A stretch of 61,774 bases of DNA from the IMG/VR virus record IMGVR_UViG_3300045988_110955; one strand, given 5' to 3'. The position numbers and the translations under genes were made by a program. The notes beneath the pieces are model-generated. The model saw only the letters and a program-made list of their open reading frames with translations, did no database searches and was not told the DNA's origin. Numbering within the stretch: position 1 is the first letter of the stretch; every line of letters begins with the position of its first letter. The stretch is from a virus. Positions 5,443 through 34,195 of this stretch are shown here, one piece after another.

Positions 5443-5444
5443 CG

Positions 5445-17509: not shown

Positions 17510-17532
17510 TATACATTAATAATATAAGGAAT

Positions 17533-17793: not shown

Positions 17794-17887
17794 CTCGAAC
17801 GACGGGGAGAGGATCGGAAGTAGATGCCCCTCCGGTAATATCGCCGGAGGGTTTGAAGGGATTTTCAACAACAAATATATTAAGATC

Positions 17888-18628
17888 ATGAAAGAATTAG
17901 TATTTAAAGGCGATAATAATCGCATTTTCACGAACAGCTTATTGGTCGCTGAGAAGTTTGGCAAATTACATAAAGATGTAATGAGAGCGATAAAAGCATT
18001 ATTGACATCGGCGCAAAATTGCGCCAGTCTCTTCATAGAGTCGGAATATCCAGACAATTATGGACGTATTCAGCCAATGTATATTATGAATCGTGATGGA
18101 TTTACATTATTGGTTATGGGCTTTACTGGTGATAAGGCCCTTCAATTCAAGTTAGATTATATTGAGGCTTTCAACCGTATGGAAGAGCAGATCAAGACTG
18201 GAGATTTCCAGATTCCACAATCTTTCTCGGAGGCGTTGATGTTGGCGGCCAAGCAGCAAGAGCAGATAGAACAGGCAAATAGAACTATCAGCAAGCTCCA
18301 GCCCAAGGCCGATTTCGCGGACAAGGCTTTCGAGACCTCGGACAAGGTTGATATCGGTATGGCTGCGAAGATATTGAAATTAGGGTTCGGAAGAAACATC
18401 CTCTTCAAGAAGCTTAAAGAAATAGGCGTGTTCTTCTCCAACCGGAACGAGCCAAAACAGAAGTACATCAACGCCGGGTATTTCGAGATGACCGAGAAGT
18501 TTATTGAGAGGGAGAATCATCCGGGCTTTGTCGTGACGAAGGTACTCGTAACCCAGAAGGGGCTGGCTTACATAAACCATCTTCTGGGAGGTGATCCCGG
18601 TGACGGTAAGATTACTAGGATTGTTTGA
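17888..18628 (+). CDS. Rha-family regulatory protein fused to a KilAC/ANT antirepressor domain
   Basis: FTNSLLVAEKFGKLHKDVMRAI...YIMNRDGFTLLVMGFTGDKALQFK (Rha). C-terminal ADFADKAF...AAKILKLG...INAGYFE (KilAC). ATG at 17888. Confidence 0.8.
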   Translation: MKELVFKGDNNRIFTNSLLVAEKFGKLHKDVMRAIKALLTSAQNCASLFIESEYPDNYGRIQPMYIMNRDGFTLLVMGFTGDKALQFKLDYIEAFNRMEEQIKTGDFQIPQSFSEALMLAAKQQEQIEQANRTISKLQPKADFADKAFETSDKVDIGMAAKILKLGFGRNILFKKLKEIGVFFSNRNEPKQKYINAGYFEMTEKFIERENHPGFVVTKVLVTQKGLAYINHLLGGDPGDGKITRIV

Positions 18629-18765
18629 AAGATCCCCTTCCTTGACTATGTCAAGTATAAAATGTGACCTAAATAGATTAGATGTACGGATTAAGTACGT
18701 ATACCCAAGACTTTAACATTTTGTGACTTGAAAATAATTGTGAAATATTAAAAGATTGATTGAAT

Positions 18766-19153: not shown

Positions 19154-21091
19154 ATGCGTATGATAAAAGCGGTATTATTGATAGGGGGGAAGAGGTATGA
19201 CGTGACCGATCACCTAAAGAACTGGGAGGACGTGGAGATATCGGCTAAGAGGAAGGATATTGGCGGTGTCGTTCGATCCTTCTCCAACAAGTTCGAGTTC
19301 GTGAAGGGGGCATACGACCTTCTTGAGGCCGAGTACCTATCCAATTATACGAAAGCCTCGGCCATATTGGTGATAGGCGTGTTGAACGATAGCTGGGGGT
19401 ATAACGAGAAGTTTCGTTGCAAGCTCGATTTCTCCACGTACCAGAGCGACGGGTATACGATATCCATAAACGCCATTGACGATAGCGTAGCGTCCATCAT
19501 CAACGCAAACAAGTCGCAGGTATACGATATCCCGGTGTCGGAGCTAAAGGAGGATACATTGTATTATGACAGGATCTATCTTAACAACAATACGAAATGG
19601 TCCATAAATCCAAATGTGGATCAAACGCAAGATGACGTATATGAGGTTATCATAAATACAAAAGACATATACACGCTATTGCCAATAACTTATATAGATA
19701 CAAATTTTGCCGTAAAGAACATAATAGATGTGTCGGATCAAATATTGAGTATCCATGAGGCTACTGGCGACAATTATATGATAAAAGGGATTACGCCACA
19801 TCCTATAAAAATAAAAATTTCATTCAGTATCAAAGCTGGTAAGACAAGTGAGGAGATCGTATTGGCCTTGTTTTTTGTTATACTAAACAAGGGAGGGGAT
19901 ATCTTACGAGAAGAAAGGACTTACATACCATTATCGGATACATATATAAATATAGATAAGACATTTGACATATCATTAGAACCGGACGATAGATTTGCCG
20001 TTTATTTCAACTCTGCGGGAGGTCATAGTACGGATATTCATTTGACAATTAAGGATGTAAAAGAGATATCCGTATCTTATATAGGTCGAAATAAGCCGGT
20101 AGAAATAGACGCTTTCTCCCCTAAAAAACTATTATCCTCGTTATTATCAAGGATGGGCGTGTCATTGTCCGGCGATATCGTCTCCGGTTCCATGCCTATA
20201 CCTTGGATGATGGCCGCTGAGAGCGTGAGAGGAATAAAGGACGCGAAGGTCCATACGTCCTTCTCCAAGTTCTGTGATTTCGCCAAGGCGTTGCTTGGGT
20301 ATGATTACGAGATACTGGATAATAGCGTGCGTTTCCGGCATATGAATGATTTCTTCGTCAATGAGACGAAAGAATTGGATCACGTGAGCAATATGGAGCT
20401 ATCCGTGGATGAGTCGTTGATATACTCTGGGGTTGAAATTGGATTCGACAAGCAGGACTATGATGAGATAAACGGGCGTGACGAGTTTCACTTCAAGAGC
20501 AGTTTCAGCACGGGATTGGACATAAAGGACAACATATTGTCATTGATAAGCCCGTATAGGGCAGATTGCTACGGATTGGAGTTTCTCGCTAACGAGCGTG
20601 ACGAGGAATCGAAGGATACGGATTCCGACAATGACATATTTATTGTCCACGCTAGGAAAGATGGGGATAGGTTAGTTCTGGTAAGAGAAGAGAATGGGGG
20701 AGCTATATATGCCGTTACGGGAGTATTGTTCTCCGACACTATCTTTAACGCCTCCTACTCGCCGAGAAATATGCTTCTTGTCAATAAGGAAAGGCTCGGG
20801 ATATGCACGGATTACCTGTCTTTCACGGCCTCGGACGGAAACTCCTCGATATCGATAGGAGGAGTATCGGAGACCCTTCCTATACCCCTGCCGGTTAACG
20901 ACCGGAGGATTAGGATTGATAAGGTGTCCTTGGAGACTCCGGGGTTATCCCCGTTCCCGGGTAATTACAGGGGCAAATTGTCGTTCTCGTACGCAGGGAG
21001 ATCGTACGAGGGATGGGTTAGCGAGATAACGGAGAAGATAGGGAAATACCAAACGGCATCCTATTCGCTGATATTGTCTAAAATTACATGA
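19154..21091 (+). CDS. Tail protein (distal-tail/baseplate position)
   Basis: 645 aa. First structural gene after the island. Has an AT-rich central segment. Confidence 0.5.
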   Translation: MRMIKAVLLIGGKRYDVTDHLKNWEDVEISAKRKDIGGVVRSFSNKFEFVKGAYDLLEAEYLSNYTKASAILVIGVLNDSWGYNEKFRCKLDFSTYQSDGYTISINAIDDSVASIINANKSQVYDIPVSELKEDTLYYDRIYLNNNTKWSINPNVDQTQDDVYEVIINTKDIYTLLPITYIDTNFAVKNIIDVSDQILSIHEATGDNYMIKGITPHPIKIKISFSIKAGKTSEEIVLALFFVILNKGGDILREERTYIPLSDTYINIDKTFDISLEPDDRFAVYFNSAGGHSTDIHLTIKDVKEISVSYIGRNKPVEIDAFSPKKLLSSLLSRMGVSLSGDIVSGSMPIPWMMAAESVRGIKDAKVHTSFSKFCDFAKALLGYDYEILDNSVRFRHMNDFFVNETKELDHVSNMELSVDESLIYSGVEIGFDKQDYDEINGRDEFHFKSSFSTGLDIKDNILSLISPYRADCYGLEFLANERDEESKDTDSDNDIFIVHARKDGDRLVLVREENGGAIYAVTGVLFSDTIFNASYSPRNMLLVNKERLGICTDYLSFTASDGNSSISIGGVSETLPIPLPVNDRRIRIDKVSLETPGLSPFPGNYRGKLSFSYAGRSYEGWVSEITEKIGKYQTASYSLILSKIT

Positions 21092-21097
21092 ATTTGT

Positions 21098-21206
21098 TTT
21101 GACAATTGATCCTTATCCCCTATATTTGTAGGACATAACAAAAAAGAAATTAGAGCCTAAGAGCCATACCCGGCGGGAGTCGTATCCTGTGGGGTATGGC
21201 TCTTTT
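21098..21206 (+). promoter_or_regulatory. Late cassette copy C
   Basis: TTTG-N19-TATATTTG (21121-21128) and hairpin at 21159-21203. About 95 percent identical to copy A by eye. Confidence 0.6.
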
Positions 21207-21221
21207 GGCGTTTATAGGCGT

Positions 21222-22112
21222 ATGATAAACGTGAGCAAGATATCACCATTGCTTTTTGACGTGGGCTATAACGGCATCGAGATGGAGCGTGAGTATATAC
21301 AACGCTTCTCTAATGCCGAGAATATAACCGTGCAATGCGTAGTATCCCCTTCCACCACTTTGTCTATGAGGTTGTTCGACCTTTGCGCCAACGATAGCTT
21401 CGTCATATCCCCCATATCCTATGAGATCAACGACTCGAATAAGCTTCTGGAGTTTATCGTTCCAAGAGGGAATAGCCTTTATAGGGCTTCCATAATCGGG
21501 AGTGAGGGGCAGATAAGCAGTCTCCCCTTCCGGTTTTGCGATAACGGGGAATTGGAGGGGCTGACGGAGGTGTCCTATACCAACAGGGATAATATCACCT
21601 CGTTCGGGGCGGTATTTGAGGTTGGAAACAATCAAAGGACTTTCAAGCTATGGATAGAGGGAGGGTTCAAGTCGGATGGGCATTCCCTTAACGTTAGCAA
21701 CGAGCAGTTCAGGACACAGGGGCAAGAGATCATAGAGCTTTACGCCGTACCGTATCAGGTGGACACGCTCACGATAGGGGATAACGAGGGGGTACCTTTC
21801 GAGATGGCCCGCTTGATCAATAACATATTCTGTCTGTCCGAGGTGAGGATAAACGGCGTTAGGTATGTCCGGAGCGAGTCCAGCGTACCCGAGAGGCAAG
21901 TGATAGCCGAGAGATACCCGTTGTTTGATTATACGTTTAACGTTGAGAGAGCGGAGAATATCTCCTTTAACGGGTTCACGGAACAGTCGGACGGATCTTG
22001 GGTCACGGGTTCCATAAGCGTGAACGTGGCAAACGCCAAGGACGGGCAGGTCCTGGTGTATGATGATTCCGTGGGGGCCTTTGTCAATCAATCAAACTTG
22101 GATTCGTTATGA
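21222..22112 (+). CDS. Tail/baseplate protein
   Basis: The track start 21189 lies in the cassette hairpin; ATG is at 21222. Confidence 0.5.
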   Translation: MINVSKISPLLFDVGYNGIEMEREYIQRFSNAENITVQCVVSPSTTLSMRLFDLCANDSFVISPISYEINDSNKLLEFIVPRGNSLYRASIIGSEGQISSLPFRFCDNGELEGLTEVSYTNRDNITSFGAVFEVGNNQRTFKLWIEGGFKSDGHSLNVSNEQFRTQGQEIIELYAVPYQVDTLTIGDNEGVPFEMARLINNIFCLSEVRINGVRYVRSESSVPERQVIAERYPLFDYTFNVERAENISFNGFTEQSDGSWVTGSISVNVANAKDGQVLVYDDSVGAFVNQSNLDSL

Positions 22113-25100
22113 GCAAAAAGAAATTGACCAAACATATATGGTACGGGTCGGATACGGTGATGTCCGAGGGTAAGCTGCAAGCGGCTCCTCCTCCCGTCGC
22201 TATAGATGACGGGACCAAAGAATGGCACCTCTCCGGATTGACGAGGGGCGAGTTGTTCGTGAATGATTACGCCGGAGACCCCGCCTTGTTCATCCTTGCC
22301 AGTGATAATAAGGTGCGAAGGATAGGAGGTCAAGGTTCCGGAAGCGGAGGTGAGGGGGGAGGCGGCGATTTCTCCTTGGCGCAAGGTCCGGGTATAGAGA
22401 TAAAATCGGATATCAATAATATATATACGATTTCCCATAAGGATACCTCTTCGCAAGAGAGTATAAATAAGACGAATAAGAAAGGTATTGCGTCCGTATT
22501 GCTAGATGACTTCGGCCATGTCACGGGCTTGGATACCTGTGACATACTCGATCTTGAGGACTTGGATAAGAGGTATCTTCGCAAGGATATCAATGACGAG
22601 GCGGCGGGAGAGATCATCTTCGACAAGAAGATAGGCTCCTCCATCTTTCTTGACGGCATGGACGGCAAGGGCTGGGAGATCAAGGCCGACGGTTCCGGTA
22701 TCATGGAGGCGTTGAAGGTGCGTTCCGACATATACGCTGGCAACAAGATCGGCTCCATATCGTTCGCCCCCGGCTTCACCGGCTTGGGCACGGAGATAGA
22801 CATCCCCACGGCCACGGGAACCTTTGACAACATATTCGTTAGGAAGACCTTCACGGCCTACGAGATAGTGTATTCGCAGATATACGGGTTGGGCGGCAAC
22901 CAGATCGTATCCGATATCAACAAGATAGGGAGGGTCGAGAGGCTGTCCGATCGTTGGAGATGCTACATGGACGACATGGACGGTCTCATGCTGATGAACC
23001 TCAGGGAAGGTGACGGAGTGAGGATACAGAGAAGGAACGGTATCACGTCCACTAAATATCTATTCGGTCGCTGTATCGGTATCTCATCCGACTATTTCGA
23101 CGTGGCCTACCCGCTGATAGAGGGTACCGGCGAGCCAGAGGCGGGGGATTTCGCCATGCGTTGGGGTAACGACAGGGATACCACTAGGCAGGGCCTTATC
23201 TACCTGACATCGGCGGATCAAGGAGCGCCGTTCATTGCCGTATATGACGGTATCACGGGCGTTTCCACGCAAGACACGCTGAAGGCCCAGCTAGGCAACC
23301 TCTCCATGATCCGTACCAAGAACGGGACCCAACTGAAGGGTTACGGGGCTTACCTGAACGGGATCTATATAGAGAACTCGTCCATATACCTCGATAACGG
23401 CATGACCGTGGAACAACAGTTCTCAGTGATGAACGGGGAGCTGAGGAGCGAGATCGAGGGGTTAAAGAACGACATGTCTCTGGAATCCGGGAATATACTT
23501 GTCAATTCCACGTTCGGGAAGGACACGAGTTATTGGGTGGAGGCCAACGACATCCATCTCATCAACGTGAGCGGCAATCTCCTGTGGGTGGGCGGTTCTT
23601 TTTACTCGGACAAGAGGAAGGTTTCCGATATCTATAGGGATGGCAGCAGGAACGTGCTTCGCATCAAGGACACGTATATATTCCAGCGTAACGACGTGAT
23701 GAAAGTTCCTGAGTTGGAAGAGAGCGAGGAGGGTCATACGTTCTCCTTCTCCTTGTTTTACAAGGTCATGAGACGAGGTGTTTTGACGGTGGGTTTCCAA
23801 GGGCAGGAGTTGTACGAGTCCTTGACGCTGGAGCCGTCCGACGAGTACGTGAAACTGTCCAAGGTCGGCAAATGGGACGGTACCGGGGATTTCCGGATCG
23901 GATTCACTGGCGAGATATTGATCTACGGCGTGTCGTTGTTCAATGACAGGCTGGCCGATGCCGTGATAAAGCTTGAGACGCGGATCTTGCAGACGGAGGA
24001 ATATATAAAGTTACTGGCCACTAAGGATTACGTGGACTCGGAGACCGGCAAGATCTACGAGAAATATACCGGCGAGTTGTCGGTCATGGCCACGGAGATA
24101 GCCGCAAGGGTGACACATACCGAGTTCGATACGGAGACGGCGGCCATAAGGCGTGAGGTATCGTCCGCTCTTACCGTTCAGGATGGCAAGATAAGCGGGA
24201 TATCCACGGATGTTAATAATATCCAGAATACGATAGATACGGCTGGGTGGATCAATACCACGCAAGGAAACGCGTTGTTCGCCGCCAAGAGCTTGGAGAA
24301 TGGCGATAATATCATATCGTATATCAACCAGACGGCAACCACCACCACGATCAAGGCGGAGAGGATCGATCTTGTCGGGGCGGTGACGTTCAGCATGTTT
24401 AATACGGATCTTCAAAGCACTATTAACGGGAAAGCAAACTCGAGCGCTCTTGGGGATTTGGCTTATGAGGACTATATCACCAAAGGGATGATGAGTACGG
24501 CCTTGCAATCGGAACTAAACGGGAAGGTAAGCGAAGGCGCTTTAGGGACATTAGCCTACGCAAGTTCTATATCAAAGAATGACTTGGCTTATTCTTTATT
24601 GACCGAATTTAACGGTAAGGCAAACAGTTCTTCTTTAAAGGCTCTTGCTTATTTAGATAAGGTTGAGCAAGCCCAATTGGGAGCGACAATCATATCAGGA
24701 GGTCATATTATCACATCCCTGATTGACACGGACGCAATTTATGCGAATATGGCATCTATAGCTGGATTTACGATTGAAAAAAATCAGCTTTATGGAACAA
24801 CGAATAATGAATATTACGGGAGTTATAAGATGTACATGGATTCAAGCAGATGTGAGATTGGAATATCTGATAGCAATGAGTCAACGTATAAACTGAGCGT
24901 AGGATATAATTATAGGACAACGAATGATGCGGGGACAGCGTCCTTGTTCATCAAAAAATCACTGGCGATAAGAACTATGGTCGAAGTCCCGAGAACCGCC
25001 ATAAAAGTAGCGGTCACTAACGCAGACGATTCTAATATGGTAAAATTAGAATGTGAGTCTACCAGAAATGATAGTGGGTTCATGAATTTTTTGTATTGCG

Positions 25101-25285
25101 AGCATGGGATAAGAGAGATACAGCTTGGGACCAAGAAGTTCTCAAACGACTCGCCAGGAATATGGCGTACCGTTTTACGTATGGATCTTATGCCTTCGGT
25201 AACACAAGTAAACACTGAATCCACATCAGGGACTAGATATAATGTCAAATGGGATTCCGCTACGGGACTTTTATATATAGAATAA
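22109..25285 (+). CDS. Tail fibre / host-specificity protein
   Basis: 1058 aa with a Gly-rich linker. Periodic GKANSSALG.LAY motifs. AT-rich C-terminal ~250 aa. Confidence 0.7.
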   Translation: MSKKKLTKHIWYGSDTVMSEGKLQAAPPPVAIDDGTKEWHLSGLTRGELFVNDYAGDPALFILASDNKVRRIGGQGSGSGGEGGGGDFSLAQGPGIEIKSDINNIYTISHKDTSSQESINKTNKKGIASVLLDDFGHVTGLDTCDILDLEDLDKRYLRKDINDEAAGEIIFDKKIGSSIFLDGMDGKGWEIKADGSGIMEALKVRSDIYAGNKIGSISFAPGFTGLGTEIDIPTATGTFDNIFVRKTFTAYEIVYSQIYGLGGNQIVSDINKIGRVERLSDRWRCYMDDMDGLMLMNLREGDGVRIQRRNGITSTKYLFGRCIGISSDYFDVAYPLIEGTGEPEAGDFAMRWGNDRDTTRQGLIYLTSADQGAPFIAVYDGITGVSTQDTLKAQLGNLSMIRTKNGTQLKGYGAYLNGIYIENSSIYLDNGMTVEQQFSVMNGELRSEIEGLKNDMSLESGNILVNSTFGKDTSYWVEANDIHLINVSGNLLWVGGSFYSDKRKVSDIYRDGSRNVLRIKDTYIFQRNDVMKVPELEESEEGHTFSFSLFYKVMRRGVLTVGFQGQELYESLTLEPSDEYVKLSKVGKWDGTGDFRIGFTGEILIYGVSLFNDRLADAVIKLETRILQTEEYIKLLATKDYVDSETGKIYEKYTGELSVMATEIAARVTHTEFDTETAAIRREVSSALTVQDGKISGISTDVNNIQNTIDTAGWINTTQGNALFAAKSLENGDNIISYINQTATTTTIKAERIDLVGAVTFSMFNTDLQSTINGKANSSALGDLAYEDYITKGMMSTALQSELNGKVSEGALGTLAYASSISKNDLAYSLLTEFNGKANSSSLKALAYLDKVEQAQLGATIISGGHIITSLIDTDAIYANMASIAGFTIEKNQLYGTTNNEYYGSYKMYMDSSRCEIGISDSNESTYKLSVGYNYRTTNDAGTASLFIKKSLAIRTMVEVPRTAIKVAVTNADDSNMVKLECESTRNDSGFMNFLYCEHGIREIQLGTKKFSNDSPGIWRTVLRMDLMPSVTQVNTESTSGTRYNVKWDSATGLLYIE

Positions 25286-25312
25286 TTATTAACAACTAAA
25301 ATACAGTAAATC

Positions 25313-25603
25313 ATGAAAGTAAATTTCAACAAACCCCTAAAGACCTTTAAGGGGGAAGACATGAAGGACGAGTTCGGAAAAGTTCAGATCATCAAGGATA
25401 TCGTATGCGCTAGGCTTTACTCTTCCGGCGATGAGATGAACGAGGACGAGAAATATGAGTCCTACAAGCTAATGACAAGGATCAACGCCGCCGATGGCGA
25501 TATGGACATTAGCGACAAGGAGTCCCTATTGATAAAGAAATGTTGTAACAAGACATTGACCGCCGGAGCTTTCGGTCAGATCTTTGAACTTTTAAACGTA
25601 TGA
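25313..25603 (+). CDS. Hypothetical protein
   Basis: 96 aa. Confidence 0.55.
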   Translation: MKVNFNKPLKTFKGEDMKDEFGKVQIIKDIVCARLYSSGDEMNEDEKYESYKLMTRINAADGDMDISDKESLLIKKCCNKTLTAGAFGQIFELLNV

Positions 25604-25607
25604 TACC

Positions 25608-25895
25608 ATGGAGATAACGAGCGACACAAGGACGATAAACGGCTACTCGGAAGTAGCCGGTATCAAGATACAGTATTCCGCCTCGGTCAAGACCGATGAG
25701 CGGATAGACCGGATAACAGGCTCTTTTATCAGGGACGGGGTACGTGTGGGATCTCTGGTCTACGAGCGTAACGGGCAATTCTTCATGTCGGTGGACAAGC
25801 CCGGCGTGATAACGAGCAAGGAGGATGCGGTGGCCATCGCCACTCAATTCTTTAACGACACTTACGAGATGTTGAACAGTCAAGCGGTGGAGTAA
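25608..25895 (+). CDS. Hypothetical protein
   Basis: 95 aa. Confidence 0.55.
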   Translation: MEITSDTRTINGYSEVAGIKIQYSASVKTDERIDRITGSFIRDGVRVGSLVYERNGQFFMSVDKPGVITSKEDAVAIATQFFNDTYEMLNSQAVE

Positions 25896-25896
25896 T

Positions 25897-27237
25897 ATGG
25901 AAAGCATCATCCTATCATCGGGCACCGAGGTAACCCCCGAGGACATCCAGAAGATAGCGTCGGCGGTCAACGGCCTGTTGCTGACCACGTCTAAGGACCC
26001 GGGACAGTACGAGGAGGCCGATAGCCTGCAAGGTATATCGTCCTTGCCGGTGTTCAGGCAATCCGGATCGGCCTACGATCTCGTACGTGTGGCCATATCC
26101 TTGTTGAGGGGCGTTGACGGGAAACAGATCGTCTTGCAGGTCACCGCCGATTACATACAGTGGCGTTACGAGGACGGGATGTGGCAGAACCTCATACCGC
26201 TCGCCGACTTGAAGAGGCCGGCCACGGAAGCCGCCGCCGATGTGCGTGAGAGGATGAACGCTATCGTGAGCGAGGTGAACGCCTTGAAGACCCAGTTCGA
26301 GAACGACGTGAGGCACGCCTTGGAGAGGGCGGATGCGGCAACCGAGAAAGCGAACACGGCGGCTGAGAACGCCAAGTCGGTGTCTGACCACCCGGGCTAT
26401 ATCGGCGATGACTTCCATGTCTACACGTGGGATTACGCTACCGGGACCTATATCAAGACGGACAGGATACTGAAACCGGAGGCGTTCACGATCTACAAGG
26501 TCTATAAGTCCGTCTCGGCTATGGAGGCGGACAAGTCTAACGTCCCGGAGGGGAAGTTCGTCATCATCAACACGGGCAGCGTGGAGGAGGAGGATACCGG
26601 CAAGCTGTATCTGAGGACATCGACGGGCTACGACTATATCGTGGACGTTTCCGGTATGAGAGGCTTCACCGGGAAGACCCCGCAATTCTCAATAGGCACC
26701 ATAACGGCGGGCACGTATCCTTCCGTCTCGTTGTCCGACGGGGGCACGGACACATCCGGCAACCCCGTATACAGGATGAACTTCGTGTTGCAGAGAGGCC
26801 CTAGGGGATTCTCTCCCAAGATATCGATCGGCAAGGTGACGACCGGTCTCCCGGGAACGGTGGCCCAAGCCACGATAACCGAGAAGGGAGAGACCGAGGA
26901 AGGGGTACCATTGGCGGAATTAGATCTTACCATCCCGCAAGGACAGGACGGGGCGGTGGCCGGCGTATACAAGACAAGGGAGATCGACCATGTCCCGGGG
27001 GCTAACGACGTGACCTACGAGGAGGGCAGTGAGACCAAGAGCTACCCTATAGGCGGTGAGGTCTATCTAAGGGAGGCTCCCGGAGACGTTACGTTCTACA
27101 AGCTCCACGACATAGTGGAGGGTAAGGCCATATGGGAGGAGTCTTCCGGTGCCGCCTTGCCGGGGAACATTTACTTGACCGGGGCGAATTACTACAATGA
27201 ATCAGTAACAATTATCGATAAAGGGATATTATCATGA
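25897..27237 (+). CDS. Tail fibre-like protein
   Basis: 446 aa. Coiled coil, then repeated G.(R/K)GF(T/S)(G/P)K...IG..T motifs. Confidence 0.55.
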   Translation: MESIILSSGTEVTPEDIQKIASAVNGLLLTTSKDPGQYEEADSLQGISSLPVFRQSGSAYDLVRVAISLLRGVDGKQIVLQVTADYIQWRYEDGMWQNLIPLADLKRPATEAAADVRERMNAIVSEVNALKTQFENDVRHALERADAATEKANTAAENAKSVSDHPGYIGDDFHVYTWDYATGTYIKTDRILKPEAFTIYKVYKSVSAMEADKSNVPEGKFVIINTGSVEEEDTGKLYLRTSTGYDYIVDVSGMRGFTGKTPQFSIGTITAGTYPSVSLSDGGTDTSGNPVYRMNFVLQRGPRGFSPKISIGKVTTGLPGTVAQATITEKGETEEGVPLAELDLTIPQGQDGAVAGVYKTREIDHVPGANDVTYEEGSETKSYPIGGEVYLREAPGDVTFYKLHDIVEGKAIWEESSGAALPGNIYLTGANYYNESVTIIDKGILS

Positions 27238-29390
27238 GCAAGAGAGGAGCTTACATATACCAACAGATAGAGCAGTCCACCGCCGAGTGGACGGCTGACA
27301 GCACCATATACCCGCCGTCGCTATGGCTTTTCGAGCGATTAACCAACGGTAATTTAAATATGAAGTTCTCGGACGGTGTCCATACGTACGCCGATCTTCC
27401 GTTGATGATGCAAGACATCAAGGTGAGGATAAAGACTAACACGGACACGGAATACGTCTTGGAGATAACCTCCGCTGAGGGAACCATAACCACGCCTAAC
27501 TTGCGTGACCATTACGACGATACGGATATCCGGAATCTGGTCACCGGTCTAAGGACAGACGTTAATAAGTTAAAGCCCGTTGTCACATCCACCCCGTCTA
27601 ACGGACAGATAACCATAACGCCGGACAAGGCCCAAAACGAAGATCCGGACGTGTCGATAACGCTGGAGACCAAGGGGGACAAGGATAAGTCTCTGATGGC
27701 TGATGGCAAGTACCGCAAGCTGCCCGTGTACGGCAGGAACCTGTTGCTGGGATCAGGGAAGGAGGTGAGTAATTCGAATTACAATATCGCTGATTATTGG
27801 CTAACTGAACCGATATCTAAAGGAACACAAGTAACATTGACTATTTTTGGAGAATTGGGTGATGATAAGGAAATGTTCACTATATATAACTCTACTGGTG
27901 CAGTAGGTTCTATGGCTCAGTTCAGTAAGGCTGACTTTGTGAATGGGAAGGCCAGTAAGACTTTTAAATGGATTACTAATATCGGAGATGCAGTAGCTGA
28001 TAATACACATATGGTTGTATTTAGTTCTCCTAAAACTGGCACATCAACTTCCACCATCCATAAGATTAAACTTGAATATGGTGACATTTCGACCGAGTGG
28101 TCTCCAGCTTGGGAAGATATACCAGATCTAGAAGAAAGATATGCATACGGTGTTGAATGGGATACTGCATCATCTAGTCCTGATGGGGTTAGAGTAGGTA
28201 ATATGCAATTGCATAGGGAGTTGCCGGTGCAGAGTAAGATGAGAAGGTGTCTTTTGGATAGAGATGGTGGAGTTAAAGAATATTTGGATAATGAGCTTTC
28301 ATGGGGTGGAAGCTATTTGGATTATGCCGTTATGACAGAGATACCTGAACATTGGTATAAATTGTATTTTAATGGCACTAAATTTAGGAAGATGTTGTCC
28401 GAAATTCCATTACCTGGGTATAAACATGTAGATAAGTTCTATATCTCAACATATGAAGCCAGAATGTATAGAACCGATAATTTATTATGTTCGGCGGCTG
28501 GAGCTAGTAAATTAAGTGATCCTAATTCAACTAATTTTAGAGGTGGCGACAATACCGCTGAATGGGATGATACCTACCGTTCCCTACTCGGCCGCCCCGT
28601 CACCAACCTCACCCGAGACCAATTCCGACAAGCCGCGAGGAAAAGAGGCAGCGGATGGGAAATGTATACCTATAACGCCCACAAGATCCTGTTCTGGCTA
28701 TTCGCCGTCGAGTACGCCACGCTGGACAGCCAGAAGCCTTTCAACGCCCAGAAGGACGCTAACGGTTTCGCCCAAGGTGGCTTAGGTCCGGGACCGACGC
28801 AAATGACGGATTGGACTAACTTCAACAACATCAACCCCCTTATCCCATGCGGCTATACCAACGAGTTCGGGAACGGCTCGGGAGAGAAGGCATATGTGGT
28901 GAAGAACGCTTCCGGTGGTACTCACGCCACGTTGATGGCTAACAGGTATCGTGGTATAGAGAATCCGTTCGCCCATATATGGAAATATACTGACGGGGCC
29001 AATATACAGGTCACCACGGGCGATGCGGGATTATCCATATTATGGACTACCGATGACCCGTCGAATTTCAGCGACACCTCTTACACCGGCTATGACAAGA
29101 AGGGCAATATCTGCCGTACAAACGGTTATGCCAAGAAGATGTTGCTTGGGGAAGATGGCGATATAGTGTCCACGGAGGTCGGCGGTAGCTCCTCTACCTA
29201 CTGGTGCGACTACTACTACACCTATACATCGGCTAACCGCATGCAGGTGGTGCTGGTTGGCGGTTACGCGGACAACGGGTCGGGTGCGGGCCTCGCTCGC
29301 GTGCGTGCGAATTCTGCGCCTTCCGATGCGGCTCGTCACCTCGGTTCGCGCCTTTGCTTTTTCCCCGAATATCGTAAAACGTCGGCGTAG
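27234..29390 (+). CDS. DGR target: fibre/receptor-binding protein with a C-terminal variable region
   Basis: 718 aa. The C-terminus ...WCDYYY...VVLVGGYADNGSGAGLARVRANSAPSDAARHLGSRLCFF contains the VR. Confidence 0.85.
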   Translation: MSKRGAYIYQQIEQSTAEWTADSTIYPPSLWLFERLTNGNLNMKFSDGVHTYADLPLMMQDIKVRIKTNTDTEYVLEITSAEGTITTPNLRDHYDDTDIRNLVTGLRTDVNKLKPVVTSTPSNGQITITPDKAQNEDPDVSITLETKGDKDKSLMADGKYRKLPVYGRNLLLGSGKEVSNSNYNIADYWLTEPISKGTQVTLTIFGELGDDKEMFTIYNSTGAVGSMAQFSKADFVNGKASKTFKWITNIGDAVADNTHMVVFSSPKTGTSTSTIHKIKLEYGDISTEWSPAWEDIPDLEERYAYGVEWDTASSSPDGVRVGNMQLHRELPVQSKMRRCLLDRDGGVKEYLDNELSWGGSYLDYAVMTEIPEHWYKLYFNGTKFRKMLSEIPLPGYKHVDKFYISTYEARMYRTDNLLCSAAGASKLSDPNSTNFRGGDNTAEWDDTYRSLLGRPVTNLTRDQFRQAARKRGSGWEMYTYNAHKILFWLFAVEYATLDSQKPFNAQKDANGFAQGGLGPGPTQMTDWTNFNNINPLIPCGYTNEFGNGSGEKAYVVKNASGGTHATLMANRYRGIENPFAHIWKYTDGANIQVTTGDAGLSILWTTDDPSNFSDTSYTGYDKKGNICRTNGYAKKMLLGEDGDIVSTEVGGSSSTYWCDYYYTYTSANRMQVVLVGGYADNGSGAGLARVRANSAPSDAARHLGSRLCFFPEYRKTSA
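29245..29361 (+). repeat. DGR variable repeat (VR)
   Basis: 117-bp ungapped match to 29807-29923 with 19 differences, all at TR adenines. Confidence 0.9.
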
Positions 29391-29429
29391 CCGCACGTAT
29401 CACGTCGGGAATTTTTTGTATAACGTTTA

Positions 29430-29783
29430 ATGAGGATAAAAATGGAAGAAGAAAAGAATAAAGATGACGGCAGCTTGTCGTTCTTGAATATCCCAAGGGA
29501 TAAGAACTCAAGGCATTTTAATTGTCCGGAGATCACCCAACAGAAGTTGACGAATCTCACGTTCTGGGTAATTGATTACATGGATGGCGTGTCCACCAAG
29601 TTCGGGAAAGACAGGGCGCTTGTCATGATCAAGGAGAATCTAGAGGATAAGGATAGTGATGCCAAGAAATTCTTTACGAACTCCCAAGAGATCAAGTACG
29701 TTCTTGGTAAGATAAAGGAGATGGACAAGTTCCCTAGGAAAGTGACGATGCGAGCCTCCGGGAACAGGTATTATCTCGAATGA
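29430..29783 (+). CDS. DGR-associated accessory ORF in the avd position, not Avd-like by eye
   Basis: 117 aa between the target and TR. The sequence (…FWVIDYMDGVSTKFGKDRALVMI…KKFFTNSQEIKYVLGKI…) does not look like a four-helix-bundle Avd. Confidence 0.6.
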   Translation: MRIKMEEEKNKDDGSLSFLNIPRDKNSRHFNCPEITQQKLTNLTFWVIDYMDGVSTKFGKDRALVMIKENLEDKDSDAKKFFTNSQEIKYVLGKIKEMDKFPRKVTMRASGNRYYLE

Positions 29784-29806
29784 CGGAATGAGGGTCGATC
29801 ATCCCT

Positions 29807-29923
29807 AGGTGGTGCTGGTTGGCGGTAACGCGGACAACAGGTCGAATGCAGGCCTCGCTAACGTGAATACGAATAATGCGCCTTCCGATGCGAATCGTAA
29901 CATCGGTTCACGCCTATACTTTT
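29807..29923 (+). repeat. DGR template repeat (TR)
   Basis: Intergenic and AAC/AAT-rich. Contains 28 adenines, 19 of which differ in VR. Confidence 0.9.
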
Positions 29924-30060
29924 AGAGAGGGGAAAAGATATTTAGATAACAAACAGGGATGGTGGCCTCGCCTCTTGGCGAAAAAAGTCTCCCCATATAA
30001 AGGGTGTTGGTAGGGAAACCGAAGACTCCCTATGATAAAAAGCAAATTAATGACAATAAA

Positions 30061-31098
30061 ATGAAGAGAATAGGGAATTTATTTGATAAGATAGCGAATA
30101 TGGACAACTTGATACTTGCGGACATGAAAGCCCGAAGGGGAAAGAAGGATTCATACGGCATAAGGTTGTTCGACAAGGACAAAGAGGGTAATCTAAGCCG
30201 TTTACTAAAGTCTCTGCTGGATGGCACGTTCAAGACTTCCAAGTACCGGACTGATACCATCTATGAGCCAAAAGAAAGGATCATCTTCAAGCTCCCTTAT
30301 TATCCGGACAGGATATTGCATCATGCCATAATGAACGTCATGGAACCTATATGGGTTTCCGTGTTCACGGCTGATACGACATCATGTATCAAGGGAAGAG
30401 GAATAACGGAGGCGTATAAGAGGACAAGACGGGCTTTGTCCGATCGTGAATCCGTCTATTGCCTCAAGGTTGATATCCGCAAATTCTATCCGTCAATAGA
30501 CCATGAGGTGTTGAAAGGCATCGCTCGGAAGAAGATCAAGGACGATCGCTTGCTTATGTTGTTGGATGAGATCATTGATTCCGCTCCCGGCGTTCCGATC
30601 GGGAATTATCTTAGCCAATATCTTGCGAATCTTTATCTCGCCTATCTGGATCACGAGATAAAGGAGATTATAGATATAAGGCATTATATCAGATACGCGG
30701 ATGACATGACTTTTTTCCATCATGATAAGTGTTTCTTGAGAAACGTATTACTTCCGTGGCTTATCGATAGATTGGCTGTGTTGAAGTTGGAGCTGAAAGG
30801 GAATTACCAGATATTTAAGATCGCTGAGAGAAGATCGGATAAAAGCGGCCGTGGTATAGATTTCGTGGGGTTCGTTTTCTATAAGGAGCATATACGGATA
30901 AGGAAGAGGACTAAGCAAAATCTATGTCGTGCGGCGGCTAGATTGAATAAAGTCCCGAATATATCCTTAACGGAATACAAGGCAGGTCTAGCCGGTTGGC
31001 TGGGCTGGATATATGATAGCGATAGCAAGCATTTAGCTAAGAAAATTTTAAAACCAGAGTTTTATGAAGCGATCATGGAGCGACACAATGCCGCCTAA
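30061..31098 (+). CDS. DGR reverse transcriptase
   Basis: MKRIGNLFDKIANMDNLILADMKARRGKK N-terminus. IRYADDMTFF (YxDD) motif. ATG 30061 is preferred over the track start 30004. Confidence 0.9.
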   Translation: MKRIGNLFDKIANMDNLILADMKARRGKKDSYGIRLFDKDKEGNLSRLLKSLLDGTFKTSKYRTDTIYEPKERIIFKLPYYPDRILHHAIMNVMEPIWVSVFTADTTSCIKGRGITEAYKRTRRALSDRESVYCLKVDIRKFYPSIDHEVLKGIARKKIKDDRLLMLLDEIIDSAPGVPIGNYLSQYLANLYLAYLDHEIKEIIDIRHYIRYADDMTFFHHDKCFLRNVLLPWLIDRLAVLKLELKGNYQIFKIAERRSDKSGRGIDFVGFVFYKEHIRIRKRTKQNLCRAAARLNKVPNISLTEYKAGLAGWLGWIYDSDSKHLAKKILKPEFYEAIMERHNAA

Positions 31099-31456
31099 AA
31101 TAGAGCGGGACGGTGACGGTTCCTACCTGTACCGGTGGGACGTTAGAGAGGAGACAAGGGAGATGGGTGACGATATGGCCCCCGTGATCTCCTATAGTTA
31201 CAACGAGGTCAGGATATGGGCCACGTTAACTGCCAACAAGATATTGGAGGCCTGTATCAACGCCCTATGGGACAAGGACGTGGAGCAAAAGAAGCTGAAC
31301 GACTACAACGCCGCCCAGCTAGGCATATTGGACTTGTCATACGTGGAGTCTTATAAGACGTTCCTTAACGAGAGGAAGGCGTTGAAAGACCGTGTGGATA
31401 GCGATTTCGCCGAGTGGGAGGCGGCGAGAGAGGAGGAGAGCATAGTGGTTTTATAA
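31088..31456 (+). CDS. Hypothetical protein
   Basis: Overlaps the RT stop. About 122 aa. Confidence 0.55.
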   Translation: MPPKIERDGDGSYLYRWDVREETREMGDDMAPVISYSYNEVRIWATLTANKILEACINALWDKDVEQKKLNDYNAAQLGILDLSYVESYKTFLNERKALKDRVDSDFAEWEAAREEESIVVL

Positions 31457-31481: not shown

Positions 31482-31958
31482 ATGGAATTTTTTAAAATGA
31501 TTTGCAGTATGAGGGAGCTACTGACTGTAGTCGTGTTTGAGATGTTCATCGTTATGGTGGCGATGGGGTGGGATTTCGCCTCGGGTTATTACAAGGCTAA
31601 ATTGAGGGGCGAGGAGCGTAATTCGTATGGCATGCGTAGGACGGTCAGTAAGTTCATACTTTACGCTGGTAGCGTATGTATAGCGTGCGGGATAGACTCG
31701 GTTTGCTACGTGTGCCGGTTCTGGGAATTTATCCATCTGCCTTTCTTGACCAATGTCCCGGTCGTATCCTCGATAGTGACCGTATTTATCTTGATAACGG
31801 AGGTTCGGTCTATCTGGGAGAAGGCTGACGCCAAACAAAGGAGGCAGGCGAGTAAGACAGCCGACATGATCGGTAAGGTTGTAACGCAAAAGGTTTTGGA
31901 GGACGCTTTGACAAACGCTTTATCCAATGCCATGAATAAAAAGAAGAAAGGAGAGTAA
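31482..31958 (+). CDS. Holin
   Basis: Three hydrophobic helices. WDFASGYYKAKLRGEERNSYGMRRTVSKF resembles the phage_holin_4 motif. Precedes the lysin. Confidence 0.65.
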   Translation: MEFFKMICSMRELLTVVVFEMFIVMVAMGWDFASGYYKAKLRGEERNSYGMRRTVSKFILYAGSVCIACGIDSVCYVCRFWEFIHLPFLTNVPVVSSIVTVFILITEVRSIWEKADAKQRRQASKTADMIGKVVTQKVLEDALTNALSNAMNKKKKGE

Positions 31959-31961: not shown

Positions 31962-32372
31962 ATGGGGAAAAATAATTTACCTCGTGGGTATCGGAACAAC
32001 AACCCGGGAAACATCCGGATCAACGGAGACTTGTTCCAAGGTGAGATACGTCCGAGCAAGGACAAGTCGTTCAAACAGTTTGAGACGATGGCGTATGGCT
32101 ACCGTGCCATATTCCGGATCTTGCGTAACTACTATAACAACTATAATTTGGACACGATCCGCAAGATGATCGGTCGTTGGGCTCCTGAAAACGAGAACGA
32201 CACGGAGGCTTACGTAAAGGCCGTATCCGGTTACGCCGGCATCCCGGCTGATGATCCTATCAACATCAATGATCGCGAGCAGATGATCCGAATTGTGTCT
32301 GGTATGAGCAAGGTGGAGAATGGGAGAGAGGCAGATATGTCGGATGTTATTGCGGGGTGGAATCTGCTATGA
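31962..32372 (+). CDS. Putative endolysin (RNNNPGNIR-motif family)
   Basis: Lies between the holin and the spanin. YRNNNPGNIR...WAPENEND motif. Confidence 0.55.
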   Translation: MGKNNLPRGYRNNNPGNIRINGDLFQGEIRPSKDKSFKQFETMAYGYRAIFRILRNYYNNYNLDTIRKMIGRWAPENENDTEAYVKAVSGYAGIPADDPININDREQMIRIVSGMSKVENGREADMSDVIAGWNLL

Positions 32373-32836
32373 AAATATGGTTCGTCATATTATTATGCCT
32401 TCTCTGTGCCTGTGGAACTTCCAAGAAATCCACGGATACGGAGAGGCATGCCACTACAAGTGTCAGTCTATCGGATAGTATCTTTAAAAAAGACAGCCTT
32501 TCGGCCATAGAGCGGATATTATCTAACGAGAGATTGAGCGCCCGGATCTTGGTCGTGGAGTGGTCTTCTCCAGACAGCGTGGGGAACATATATCCTGTCA
32601 AGACATCCGATATAACCATAGGAAAGGAGCGAGAGGAATCAGGCGAGAAGATCGTTTCGTCCGGATCTGATATGACAGAGGTGAGGACGAATAATGAGAC
32701 GGTAGTTACCGATGAGAGAGAAACGATAAACGTGGATAAGGGAACGAGGCTCATTCATCTTAGGGTATGGTGGTATCTGTTGGTAGGAGGGATGATTGCG
32801 GCCATGTTATGGTGGATCATTAATAAGAGAGGGTGA
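32369..32836 (+). CDS. Unimolecular spanin-like lipoprotein
   Basis: Lipobox LLCAC near the N-terminus and a C-terminal TM helix (WWYLLVGGMIAAMLWWII). ATGA overlap with the lysin. Confidence 0.55.
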   Translation: MKIWFVILLCLLCACGTSKKSTDTERHATTSVSLSDSIFKKDSLSAIERILSNERLSARILVVEWSSPDSVGNIYPVKTSDITIGKEREESGEKIVSSGSDMTEVRTNNETVVTDERETINVDKGTRLIHLRVWWYLLVGGMIAAMLWWIINKRG

Positions 32837-32955
32837 TTTAATATTGATACATAGTGTTATCCAATGACTCCGAGAGGACGAGTTGGCGGGGAGATAAAGA
32901 AAAAAGAATCTTCCCTAAATAATCGGATCGGAAGTTTGATTATTTTTCATGCCAC

Positions 32956-33001
32956 GCACGACGGGAAGATTCTTATAAGTCTTTCTGCCGTGCATTTTTT
33001 T
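32956..33001 (+). terminator. Rho-independent terminator after the lysis cassette
   Basis: 13-bp imperfect stem GCACGACGGGAAG / CTTTCTGCCGTGC, then TTTTTTT. Confidence 0.6.
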
Positions 33002-33043
33002 GCCCGGCTTTGATAGTAAAACAAACCACGAAATAAAAAGTTT

Positions 33044-33334
33044 ATGAATAAGGTGGAAATTTTTTACAAAAAAGTGATAGAGGCGGTATGCAAGGAGTGC
33101 GGGACCGATCCGATAATGATGTTTAGTAACAACAAAGAACGCAATGTTGACGCTAGGGGAGTGGCTATAACCATACTGGCCGATCGCAAGTTAAGCGACA
33201 ATATCATATCCGATCTGACGGGAATGACGAGGCAGGCGGTCAACAGGATGCGTAACTTGTACCCGGACAGGATCAAGAGGAGTTACTATCTGAGGAGGAC
33301 GGTGGAGAGCGTTAAAGATAGCATAAATGAATAG
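33044..33334 (+). CDS. Small HTH DNA-binding protein (DnaA-C-like)
   Basis: DARGVAITILADRKLSDNIISDLTGMTRQAVNRM. Confidence 0.45.
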   Translation: MNKVEIFYKKVIEAVCKECGTDPIMMFSNNKERNVDARGVAITILADRKLSDNIISDLTGMTRQAVNRMRNLYPDRIKRSYYLRRTVESVKDSINE

Positions 33335-33485
33335 TTATGATTATATTATAACTTTTTCAAAGTTCAAATGTTATACTAATGATAGAAAAAAAGTTACCGA
33401 AAATATTGTAGGTGATAGAAAAATAGTTATCTTTGTGCGTTCATTCATCCAAGATGATGATTTTATTAACCAAAAGGATTAGCAC

Positions 33486-33698
33486 ATGGTAAGAAAGATC
33501 AAGGCTGTTATTGCCTTATTGGAAGCGAATGGATGGGCGCACATAAGAACTAGAGGAGATCACAGGATATTCAGGAAAGACGGAGAACCCCGTTCTATTC
33601 CTATTCCGGGGAGTCCTAGTGACGATCTAGCAATCGGTACGCTAAAATCAATATTAAAACAAGCCGGGCTAAGCGAGTCTGACTTTGATAAAATTTGA
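33486..33698 (+). CDS. hicA: HicA toxin
   Basis: LLEANGWAHIRTRGDHRIFRK...IPIPG. Confidence 0.85.
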   Translation: MVRKIKAVIALLEANGWAHIRTRGDHRIFRKDGEPRSIPIPGSPSDDLAIGTLKSILKQAGLSESDFDKI

Positions 33699-33790
33699 TT
33701 ACATCCAATGGATAGCAGGACATATAGCCAGTCCTGCTTTCATTTTGGATGAGTGATAAATTAGCAAACATGAACCTAAAAAATATCAAT

Positions 33791-34195
33791 ATGAAAACGT
33801 TGACTGTTATAATCGAGAGAACCGATAATAATTACTCGGCATATCTGCAAGAAGTGGATGGTATCGTGGCAACAGGTAAAAGCGTGGAAGAAATTAAAAA
33901 ATGTATAATTGATTCTATTAACGTACTAATAGATGAATGTAATGAGTTTGGCGATGCTATTCCAGAGGCACTTAAAGGTGAGTATTGTTTGGCGTTTAAA
34001 ATGGATGTTAAATCTCTTTTGGATTTCTACTCAAAGATATTCACAAAAGCTGGATTAGAACGTATTACGGGCATAAACCAAAAGCAATTATGGCATTATG
34101 CGTCAGGTTTACGTAACCCACGCCCAGAGCAAACCGTTAAATTGGAGAATGCCCTTCATAAACTAGGAGAGGAATTATTGGCTATAAATCTATAA
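33791..34195 (+). CDS. hicB: HicB antitoxin with a C-terminal HTH
   Basis: TLTVIIERTDNNYSAYLQEVDGIVATGKSVEE. Adjacent to hicA. Confidence 0.75.
   Translation: MKTLTVIIERTDNNYSAYLQEVDGIVATGKSVEEIKKCIIDSINVLIDECNEFGDAIPEALKGEYCLAFKMDVKSLLDFYSKIFTKAGLERITGINQKQLWHYASGLRNPRPEQTVKLENALHKLGEELLAINL

Follow-up and report, generated by a model that had tools for sequence, protein, structure and literature searches.

The stretch of viral DNA considered here, IMG/VR record IMGVR_UViG_3300045988_110955 (61,774 nucleotides, analysed whole and called the window below), carries an element that we regard with high confidence as a functional-type diversity-generating retroelement (DGR). The element appears intact and very probably active, is of the Avd-less type, and would diversify the receptor-binding C-terminal tip of a distal tail protein in a 61.8-kb temperate phage. 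Its hallmarks are mismatches of the variable repeat (VR) with its template repeat (TR) at adenines only, a DGR-type reverse transcriptase (RT) with YADD and IGxxxSQ motifs, a VR at the 3' end of the target gene and a non-coding TR close to the RT gene. To these are added a TR that stays constant among relatives while VR varies, and a structured RNA around TR.

TR occupies positions 29807-29923 of the plus strand and is non-coding: read in the frame of VR, it has a stop codon at either end. VR (29245-29361, plus strand) matches it over 117 bp and codes for residues 671-709 of the target, a 718-aa open reading frame (ORF) that continues for 9 residues past the VR-encoded part. An earlier reading of the letters alone (the sequence-only reading) had described this gapless alignment, with 19 differences all at TR adenines, and had placed VR at the last ~40 residues of the ORF. 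MAFFT alignment and a direct count agree with it in every respect, including its coordinates and the translations it quoted: there are 19 mismatches and 0 gaps over 117 bp, all mismatches being at TR adenines (10 A>G, 6 A>C, 3 A>T). Thus 19 of the 28 TR adenines are changed in VR and none of the 89 other positions is, so that the non-adenine mismatches which would have spoken against a DGR are missing from the computed alignment. The chance of 19 out of 19 mismatches falling on 28 adenine positions is p = 2e-15 (hypergeometric). The similarity breaks off sharply at either end of the 117 bp, and a search of the whole window for a third repeat copy or a remote second VR found none, leaving two copies. 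In the frame of VR, TR reads VVLVGGNADNRSNAGLANVNTNNAPSDANRNIGSRLYF. It contains nine AAY codons, in keeping with the AAC/AAT bias noted earlier, and 25 of its 28 adenines occupy codon position 1 or 2. By computation, none of the A-containing codons inside the repeat can be turned into a stop by mutation of an A, and the theoretical VR repertoire amounts to about 10^14.5 peptides.

The RT gene (30061-31098, plus strand) encodes a protein of 345 aa with a pI of 9.6 and a YADD box (RVT_1, E 7e-13; phrog_1423, E 2e-103). Its ATG lies 137 nt past TR, close to the 140 bp or so first estimated. An upstream GTG start is unlikely since homologues begin at the same MKRIGNLF. The best PDB match is 8ub7_A, a 328-aa RT, with E 4e-33, the runner-up being a group II intron RT at 2e-14. 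We read 8ub7 as the RT of the Bordetella phage DGR (bRT) in its complex with Avd and RNA. The YADD and PIGNYLSQ segments of the window RT align to YMDD and PIGSLTSQ of bRT, and IGxxxSQ (motif 4) is a signature of DGR RTs. The residues matching bRT K29, R74, D138, I181, G182, Q187 and D215/D216 are conserved in the alignment; in bRT these residues contact the template base or the incoming dNTP or take part in catalysis (bioRxiv 10.1101/2023.10.23.563531). The crAss-like phage cr50_1 has a DGR RT that is 46% identical. Some 350 public contigs, the longest of 535 kb, encode exactly the window RT protein, and this shows that the element exists as a prophage.

Evidence bearing on activity comes from related phages. 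The target has 187 relatives in IMG/VR, and 80 of the 187 loci were taken for comparison. About 30 of them carry the full cassette, with TR 98-100% and RT 97-100% identical to those of the window; their VRs are all different, with mismatches almost wholly at TR adenines. An exact copy of the TR core is present on 51 IMG/VR contigs. Taken over 45 distinct VRs, in a set of 52 related phage loci, the fraction changed averages 0.61 at A sites vs 0.009 at non-A sites. At some 22 further loci, VR shows the same pattern of A-site scars when set against the window TR, without accessory gene, TR or RT within 4 kb, and the TR core is on none of the contigs concerned. Accessory gene, TR, spacer and RT are thus present or absent together (29431-31062, plus strand): alignments of the window with loci L003, L017 and L033 run up to 29430 and resume at 31063-31064 with about 10 nt in between, which defines a discrete module of 1.63 kb.

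The consequences of its presence were seen in pairs of loci that diverge by no more than 1% in the 700 nt upstream of VR. Of the 18 pairs that bear the cassette, 17 have VRs that are 10-18 nt apart, whereas all six cassette-less pairs differ by just 0-1 nt. A VR invariant across many related genomes, together with disabling mutations in the RT, had been named at the outset as an observation that would tell against the DGR; the comparison of pairs came out in favour of it.

Two observations on VR alleles may be added. Locus L041 (IMGVR_UViG_3300045988_088318) has at 5703-5819 a single hybrid repeat, of which the first 66 nt are VR-like with seven A-site changes and the last 51 nt, identical to TR, run on into the TR spacer and RT; no accessory gene is present. 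Either recombination between VR and TR has inactivated the cassette, or the assembly is chimeric here. A second VR allele class (…LIGGSADIGQNSGLAYINTHDASSAAAKYFGSRLCFF), near-identical in sequence with three close peptide variants, is present at nine loci on different contigs (L019-L023, L043, L062, L071 and L081). It shows many non-A differences from the window TR and has no cassette nearby, and is either a widespread, apparently frozen fibre tip or one that some unseen TR acts upon.

A few of the 19 differences between TR and VR are fixed differences and not fresh mutagenesis. All 45 distinct related VRs have G, T and G at repeat sites 33, 110 and 112 (29839, 29916 and 29918 of the window TR), and 44 of the 45 have G at site 44, a synonymous position. 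Since site 110 is a synonymous third position (CTA vs CTT), selection at the protein level does not explain its invariance. Sites 110 and 112 probably lie outside the transferred segment, in which case they would be fixed differences between a short initiation of mutagenic homing (IMH) element, CGCCTTTGCTTTT, and its counterpart at TR (IMH*), CGCCTATACTTTT. The candidate IMH-like 3' end of VR spans 29349-29361 (plus strand), its T 29354 and G 29356 being invariant in the 45 VRs where TR has A; the aligned IMH*-like end of TR lies at 29911-29923 (plus strand). In distant cassettes too, VR ends are conserved and TR ends divergent. Together with the two invariant sites, this is consistent with a short IMH at the 3' end of VR. 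That sites 33 and 44 are almost always G could be due to context-dependent misincorporation or to selection at the nucleotide level. Over all A sites of the 45 VRs, compared with the window TR, A is kept 496 times and replaced by G 424, by T 205 and by C 135 times, a G-biased spectrum. Three nt past the end of VR starts a stem-loop with a T-run (29364-29417, plus strand; DNA fold of -12.4 kcal/mol), which is also conserved in cassette-less relatives. Its position makes it a candidate terminator of the target gene and/or a candidate DNA hairpin for target recognition.

The RNA around TR is structured. The 14 nt directly upstream of TR (29793-29806, plus strand) pair with 29955-29967 (plus strand) in a 13-bp duplex, P1, the counterpart of the upstream:spacer duplex in the cPRT Stop of the Bordetella DGR RNA. 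P1 is followed by a hairpin, P2 (CGCC-UCUU-GGCG, 29969-29980, plus strand), and by a run of six adenosines (29981-29986). P1 was first seen in the minimum-free-energy fold of 29790-30063, and RNAalifold, run on an alignment of 25 distinct cassettes, independently gives both P1 and P2. Compensatory changes affect 8 of the 13 pairs of P1; P2 covaries at three of its four pairs and is paired in 98% of cells, and the A-run is invariant in the 25 cassettes. When P1 and P2 are counted together, 89.9% of cells are paired and both sides have changed at 11 of 17 pairs (51 cells). None of 500 shuffles attains the observed value, and sliding the 3' partners by 1-3 columns brings the paired fraction down to 36-61%. 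The minimum free energy of the whole TR-spacer region is not significant by z-score, hence it is covariation that demonstrates the structure. A third helix (GGG...CCC around UGGUAG/CGAA), recognised by eye and from the Rfam model, was left out of these counts because the alignment is out of register there.

The spacer between TR and RT also matches, over the full length of the model, the Rfam RT-17 RNA (RF03020; 29964-30049, plus strand), with 43.4 bits against a gathering score of 40.4. The 5' 'gaCC' of RT-17, unpaired in that model, turns out to be part of the long-range duplex with sequence upstream of TR. RT-17 is also present in the spacers of four related cassettes (L083, L138, L142 and L169), while cassettes with a fused RT (see below) carry the RT-3 RNA, at 128-150 bits. 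Among the RT motifs described by Weinberg et al. 2017 (PMC5737381), only RT-10 was tied to a DGR, that of BPP-1; an occurrence of the others in DGRs was offered as speculation and no function was given. RT-17 is here placed between a verified TR and a DGR RT. In the Bordetella DGR RNA, the cPRT Stop consists of a duplex between upstream and spacer sequences, followed by a short stem-loop and adenosines engaged in A-minor contacts; it terminates cDNA synthesis and is needed for it (bioRxiv 10.1101/2023.10.23.563531). The survey in that study found the duplex to average 13 bp and covered only Avd-containing DGRs. The linker between the end of TR and the 3' strand of P1 measures 31 nt in the window and about 11 nt in relatives. 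The 11-bp stem-loop by which the Bordetella spacer binds Avd would not fit into so short a linker, in agreement with the lack of Avd here. A search for complementarity between the 3' end of TR and the linker, as a clue to the priming adenosine, gave nothing convincing.

Between VR and TR lies a small gene (29430-29783, plus strand; phrog_19665) whose probable start, ATG 29442, gives a protein of 113 aa with a pI of 8.6. The family phrog_19665 has no assigned function. Identity with Avd was rejected: neither Pfam, NCBIfam (E <= 0.01), PADLOC nor PDB profiles gave a match, the Avd four-helix-bundle family (PF05635 and the NCBIfam Avd models) among them, and the model of the protein is beta-rich and not a helical bundle. 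Matches to Trep_dent_lipo are weak, far under the cut-off, and were likewise dismissed. There is no homology to gp043 or gp045 of cr50_1. In an AlphaFold (AF2) model with a predicted local distance difference test (pLDDT) score of 80, the protein is beta-barrel-like with the order b1-b2-b3-helix-b4-b5. Its weak Foldseek matches in the PDB are enriched in the oligonucleotide/oligosaccharide-binding (OB) folds of SSB, PriB and Teb1, and this, with the topology, makes the predicted fold OB-like. Compared with predicted viral structures (BFVD), its only significant matches are phage proteins with an RT domain, SSBs coming next at E ~1e-2.

Accessory homologues form 405 clusters and remain about 70% identical while the targets and RTs fall to 42-66%. 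In a scan of one genome per species, followed by a small DGR finder, a homologue adjoins an RT gene or fragment at 80 of 80 loci. At 36 of these it stands alone, as in Alistipes putredinis DSM 17216, Rikenellaceae, Muribaculaceae and Bacteroides faecichinchillae; the roughly 30 complete loci of this kind have the order target-accessory-TR-RT and 13-24 TR/VR mismatches, 89-100% of them at TR adenines. At the other 44 the homologous domain lies downstream of the RT, and some 40 of these have it joined in frame to the RT, whose C-terminal 85 or so residues it makes up (for instance in Phocaeicola plebeius, P. coprocola, Bacteroides finegoldii, Segatella copri and Parabacteroides). The fused RTs measure 431-434 aa, and their C-terminal domain is 39% identical to the window accessory protein (E 2e-15). 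Wu et al. 2018 (PMC5758913) had noted that some 20% of DGR RTs carry a C-terminal extension, which was left unexplained. The invariable RT adjacency, the strong conservation, the loss in common with TR and RT and the RT fusion together mean that the accessory protein is a genuine DGR component and not a nested passenger. No published description of it was found in the literature searched, and it is apparently an undescribed DGR cofactor. A broader proposal, which we put forward tentatively and at somewhat less than even confidence, is that the phrog_19665 protein replaces Avd throughout a very large, mostly Bacteroidales phage lineage, either alone or fused to the RT. It would do so together with spacer RNAs of the RT-17 (stand-alone) or RT-3 (fused) type that keep the cPRT-Stop duplex and dispense with the Avd-binding stem-loop. 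One distant cassette (L086, 5001-5907) has two tandem 114-aa accessory genes between target and RT; its sisters L084 and L085 have one.

An acidic ORF of 130 aa (31064-31456, plus strand; pI 4.6, phrog_11557) overlaps the RT stop codon and is a possible second cassette-associated gene. An acidic ORF (pI 4.3-5.3) occupies the same position at 71 of the 77 loci where both RT and accessory could be scored, gp043 of cr50_1 does so too, and in the fused-RT lineage the acidic ORF measures 158-162 aa. The accessory protein 'CH1' of Wu et al. 2018 (PMC5758913), from lineage 3a in Bacteroides, has 160-169 aa and a pI of 4.7. The acidic ORF is possibly related to CH1, the likeness being one of published length, pI and host only. 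Profile-profile comparison between the acidic ORFs of the window type and those of the fused lineage gave a weak match over the N-terminal 56 columns (probability 52%, E 1.4e-4), with a shared RWD[VI] motif. Because the ORF is kept in cassette-less phages, its role in the DGR is uncertain.

These elements suggest the following course of events. A transcript of about 29785-30060 would fold so that the 14 nt upstream of TR pair with 29955-29967 in P1, looping out TR, with P2, the A-run and the remainder of RT-17 coming after P1; the structure in this part of the model is shown by covariation. By analogy with Bordetella, the RT and the OB-like accessory protein would bind this RNA and prime in cis within the 31-nt linker (29924-29954), and the RT would then copy TR toward its 5' end, misincorporate opposite adenines and halt at P1. 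The cDNA would replace VR, with the IMH-like end setting the 3' boundary and the fixed differences (29354 and 29356 vs 29916 and 29918) presumably keeping the transfer one-way. Some 22 truly variable adenines, in the nine AAY and other codons, would supply the diversity of the fibre tip, roughly 10^14 different tips and no stops according to the computation. Finally, as the comparison of loci shows, accessory gene, TR and RT move as a 1.6-kb module that is often lost, VR being frozen afterwards.

The target gene (27234-29390, plus strand) belongs to phrog_5302, 'tail protein' (E 5e-106), and is the final large tail or fibre gene before the lysis genes. Its residues from about 300 to 718 (28131-29390, plus strand; some 420 aa) form a self-contained DGR-target module, the residues up to about 300 being a phage-specific N-terminal part. 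In other, more distant cassettes this module is the entire target, with 441-443 aa and 45-49% identity. The module family numbers more than 7000 homologues and corresponds to no Pfam domain. To our knowledge, the C-type lectin fold is universal in characterised DGR targets, and we take the C-terminal ...NIGSRLCF motif of the target to resemble the NIGFR ends of C-type lectin VRs. The C-type lectin or formylglycine-generating enzyme (FGE) fold that had been suggested for residues ~560-718 was nevertheless not confirmed: Pfam, PDB sequences and PDB profiles gave no match to it. An AF2 model of the C-terminal module, built on an alignment of 51 sequences, has a mean pLDDT of 57, with values under 35 over VR, and Foldseek returned nothing significant for it. 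The gene is also a mosaic in composition (27750-28560), with an AT-rich middle and GC-rich flanks, and relatives share the target protein from differing N-terminal breakpoints (residues 92, 100, 121 and 142). This suggests repeated domain shuffling of the N-terminal part of the fibre.

The same module is found in an unrelated phage. The C-terminal 410 aa of the target including VR (window 28139-29372) are encoded by DNA that is 93% identical to gp044, a tail protein gene of cr50_1, a crAss-like phage of the Suoliviridae (L001, NC_055868.1, 3007-4237). Compared with the window TR, the VR of gp044 shows 15 A-site differences and one G>A. cr50_1 has no copy of the window TR, so its gp044 VR is an orphan. 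The shared module points to a recent swap of a diversified receptor-binding module between unrelated phage orders. cr50_1 has a distinct DGR of its own directly upstream of gp044 (1-1916 of the same locus), with VR at 49-114, TR at 322-387, RT at 557-1597 and then gp043. It shows a P1-like duplex (246-256 with 463-473), followed by a P2-like hairpin and an A-rich run at about 474-492. The VR-bearing gene of that DGR extends beyond the end of the linear record, of which bases 1-4636 are unannotated.

Several points weigh against the picture of an active Avd-less DGR with a nucleic-acid-binding cofactor. The expected lectin fold of the target was recovered neither from sequence and profiles nor from the model with Foldseek. 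The accessory protein has no significant fold match to a known nucleic-acid-binding family, its top PDB Foldseek match being at E = 0.4. Several A sites are invariant across VRs, so that the raw count of 19 overstates recent mutagenesis, and the hairpin past VR is no more stable than shuffled sequence (z = -0.63). The case for activity is drawn from the sequences of relatives and not from reads of this genome, and the priming site and the steps of cDNA integration are modelled on other DGRs. Some of these points could be turned into another account of the cassette, namely that the ORF of 113-117 aa between VR and TR is an unrelated nested phage gene and that the DGR runs on its RT alone ('target-X-TR-RT'). 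There is precedent for it, since Wu et al. 2018 (PMC5758913) report that 29% of DGRs are accessory-free and that most nested ORFs lack conservation, and the role given to the accessory protein is deduced from sequence and a structural model in which no known nucleic-acid-binding fold is significantly matched. A passenger would hardly be expected to stay at 70% identity over 405 clusters while targets and RTs diverge, to lie beside an RT gene or fragment at all 80 loci in many genomes, to turn up in a sister lineage as an extension at the C-terminus of the RT and to vanish with TR and RT as a single module. We therefore consider a nested passenger very improbable, and retain the accessory protein as a DGR component.

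It is very improbable that the DGR is a recently inactivated remnant whose VR is a frozen record of past diversification. Loss is certainly common, as witnessed by the 22 or so related loci with an A-scarred VR and no accessory gene, TR or RT and by the VR/TR hybrid of L041 with its deleted accessory gene, and activity is beyond the reach of one sequence. In the window, however, all parts are intact, from the RT ORF with its YADD box and a TR identical to that of many relatives to P1, P2, RT-17 and the accessory gene. Moreover, relatives whose VRs have diverged on identical backbones have RTs that match the window RT protein with 100% identity. Hardly credible at all is the proposal that there is no DGR here but a retron, a group II intron fragment or a defence RT (DRT/Abi) lying beside a fibre-gene 3' end duplicated by chance or through recombination. 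It could appeal to matches of the RT to group II, Drt3a, retron and Abi models and to the 'retron-type' or 'MatK' labels that it bears in some databases; those matches are all sub-threshold, far under the curated cut-offs. Neither the adenine-restricted mismatches, with their p of 2e-15, nor the conserved TR facing a hypervariable VR in dozens of relatives would be accounted for, and by sequence the closest structural relative of the RT is 8ub7_A (E 4e-33). An intact, very probably active DGR thus remains the preferred reading.

The window looks like a whole temperate phage genome. It has a small terminase gene (60011-60595), a portal gene (1011-2462), genes for a protease and the major capsid protein, a tape measure protein of 1138 aa, distal tail genes (19154-29390), a holin gene (31482-31958) and an endolysin gene (31962-32372). 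Signs of a temperate lifestyle are a Bacteroidota-type integrase (Arm-DNA-bind_5 and SAM_5 domains, 56406-57701), an S24 repressor and antirepressors (Ant). The reading of the phage as temperate, with VR at the 3' end of its last tail or fibre gene, is supported. Homologues of the accessory gene, and sister cassettes too, are located in Bacteroidales genomes, and the host is probably a member of the Bacteroidales. The original description as a Bacteroidota-style temperate siphovirus thus stands as regards integrase, repressor and Bacteroidales homologues; the siphovirus morphology is plausible, judging from the tape measure protein and from the gene annotation, in which no tail sheath was matched. 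Apart from the fibre module of cr50_1 and a 131-bp HNH fragment, no close nucleotide relatives were found among GenBank phages.

Other features of the genome are the following. A tRNA-Arg(CCU) gene lies at 54693-54779 and, about 2.3 kb from it, ARAGORN reports a tRNA-like gene of 68 nt to which it assigns no anticodon ('tRNA-???', 52369-52436, minus strand) and which is under the Rfam gathering threshold. A DnaB-like replicative helicase of 803 aa (42856-45267, minus strand) is split by a LAGLIDADG homing-endonuclease domain and looks like an intein-containing gene. Just past the lysis genes, at 33486-34195, lie a gene for the toxin HicA (70 aa) and, after it, an ORF of 148 aa, maybe HicB. In sister prophages (L219 and L221-L224, about 5350-6200) small genes with anti-defence Pfam matches (Tad2-like, Sequestin and DUF6808) come right after the lysis genes, and the window has other ORFs in that slot (32350-33350), a variable accessory slot beside the DGR and lysis block. 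An AT-rich island (12500-18650; GC content of 31-38% vs ~46%) separates the tape measure from the distal tail genes, with genes for KilA-N and two antirepressor-type proteins (ANT/Rha) and, on the minus strand, for a SocA/Panacea antitoxin-domain protein and a YbjQ-domain protein. This island looks like a moron or a regulatory insertion within the structural module.

DGRs are common and well described in gut phages, and as such the element is ordinary. What it adds is a candidate non-Avd cofactor with its RT fusion, an RNA map, the presence or absence of the cassette, and a fibre module shared with a crAss-like phage. Mechanistic knowledge of DGRs comes nearly all from the Avd-dependent Bordetella element. 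A compact and abundant Avd-less model with a candidate cofactor, an RT fusion serving as a 'Rosetta stone' and a map of the RNA makes the working of Avd-less DGRs directly testable. If the accessory protein is indeed a cofactor, 'Avd-independent' DGRs would not be cofactor-free; they would use another RNA- or cDNA-binding partner, which would be key to reconstitution. A 1.6-kb module present or absent on otherwise identical phages is, in addition, a clean comparative gauge of DGR-driven fibre evolution. The receptor-binding module with its orphan VR in a crAss-like phage shows that fibre tips diversified in this way pass from one gut phage order to another, unrelated one.

How does the element compare with known systems? 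It had been likened to the DGR of Bordetella phage BPP-1, and the likeness holds for the order of target, small ORF, TR and RT; it fails for the small ORF, which is not Avd by family match or by its beta-rich model. As in mtd-avd-TR-brt of BPP-1, all components share one strand, a distal tail-fibre gene carries VR at its 3' end and TR and VR differ specifically at adenines. The closest solved relative of the window RT is the BPP-1-type RT, whose residues in contact with template and dNTP are kept. Both RNAs have an upstream:spacer duplex of about 13 bp, a short stem-loop and adenosines (the cPRT Stop). Unlike the BPP-1 Avd, a pentamer of helical bundles, the small protein of the window is modelled as beta-rich and OB-like, and the linker of 31 nt (some 11 nt in relatives) has no space for an 11-bp Avd-binding stem-loop. 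The IMH-like element, about 13 bp with two fixed differences, is much shorter than that of BPP-1, the target is not detectably Mtd, and the spacer RNA is RT-17 in place of RT-10.

Closer parallels exist among the Avd-less DGRs of gut Bacteroidales phages, with which the element belongs; its fit to lineage 3 is judged from pairwise RT identity and not from a tree. Lineage 3 was described by Wu et al. 2018 (PMC5758913), and a DGR of this kind is known from the crAssphage LMMB (PMC7290462). Like those of lineage 3 and of the crAss-like phages LMMB and cr50_1, the element has no avd, its core order is target-TR-RT and it resides in a phage of gut Bacteroidales; none of the ORFs flanking the cassette matches an avd, HRDC or MSL gene. 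With cr50_1 it shares an RT that is 46% identical and an acidic ORF after the RT (gp043), and with LMMB the frequency of incomplete cassettes in the population (PMC7290462). It departs from lineage 3 DGRs as published, which are accessory-free or have only CH1, by its conserved OB-like ORF between VR and TR. The fused-RT DGRs of Bacteroides, Phocaeicola and Prevotella, with RTs of 431-434 aa, resemble it in their homologous accessory domain, in an acidic ORF that abuts or overlaps the RT stop codon and in adenine-specific TR/VR differences. Unlike the window element, they are arranged as target-TR-RT::domain-acidic ORF, their RTs are merely 28-36% identical to that of the window, and their spacer RNA is RT-3, not RT-17. 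They fit architecture E of Wu et al., with CH1, in lineage 3a (PMC5758913), their acidic ORF being equated with CH1 by published length, pI and host.

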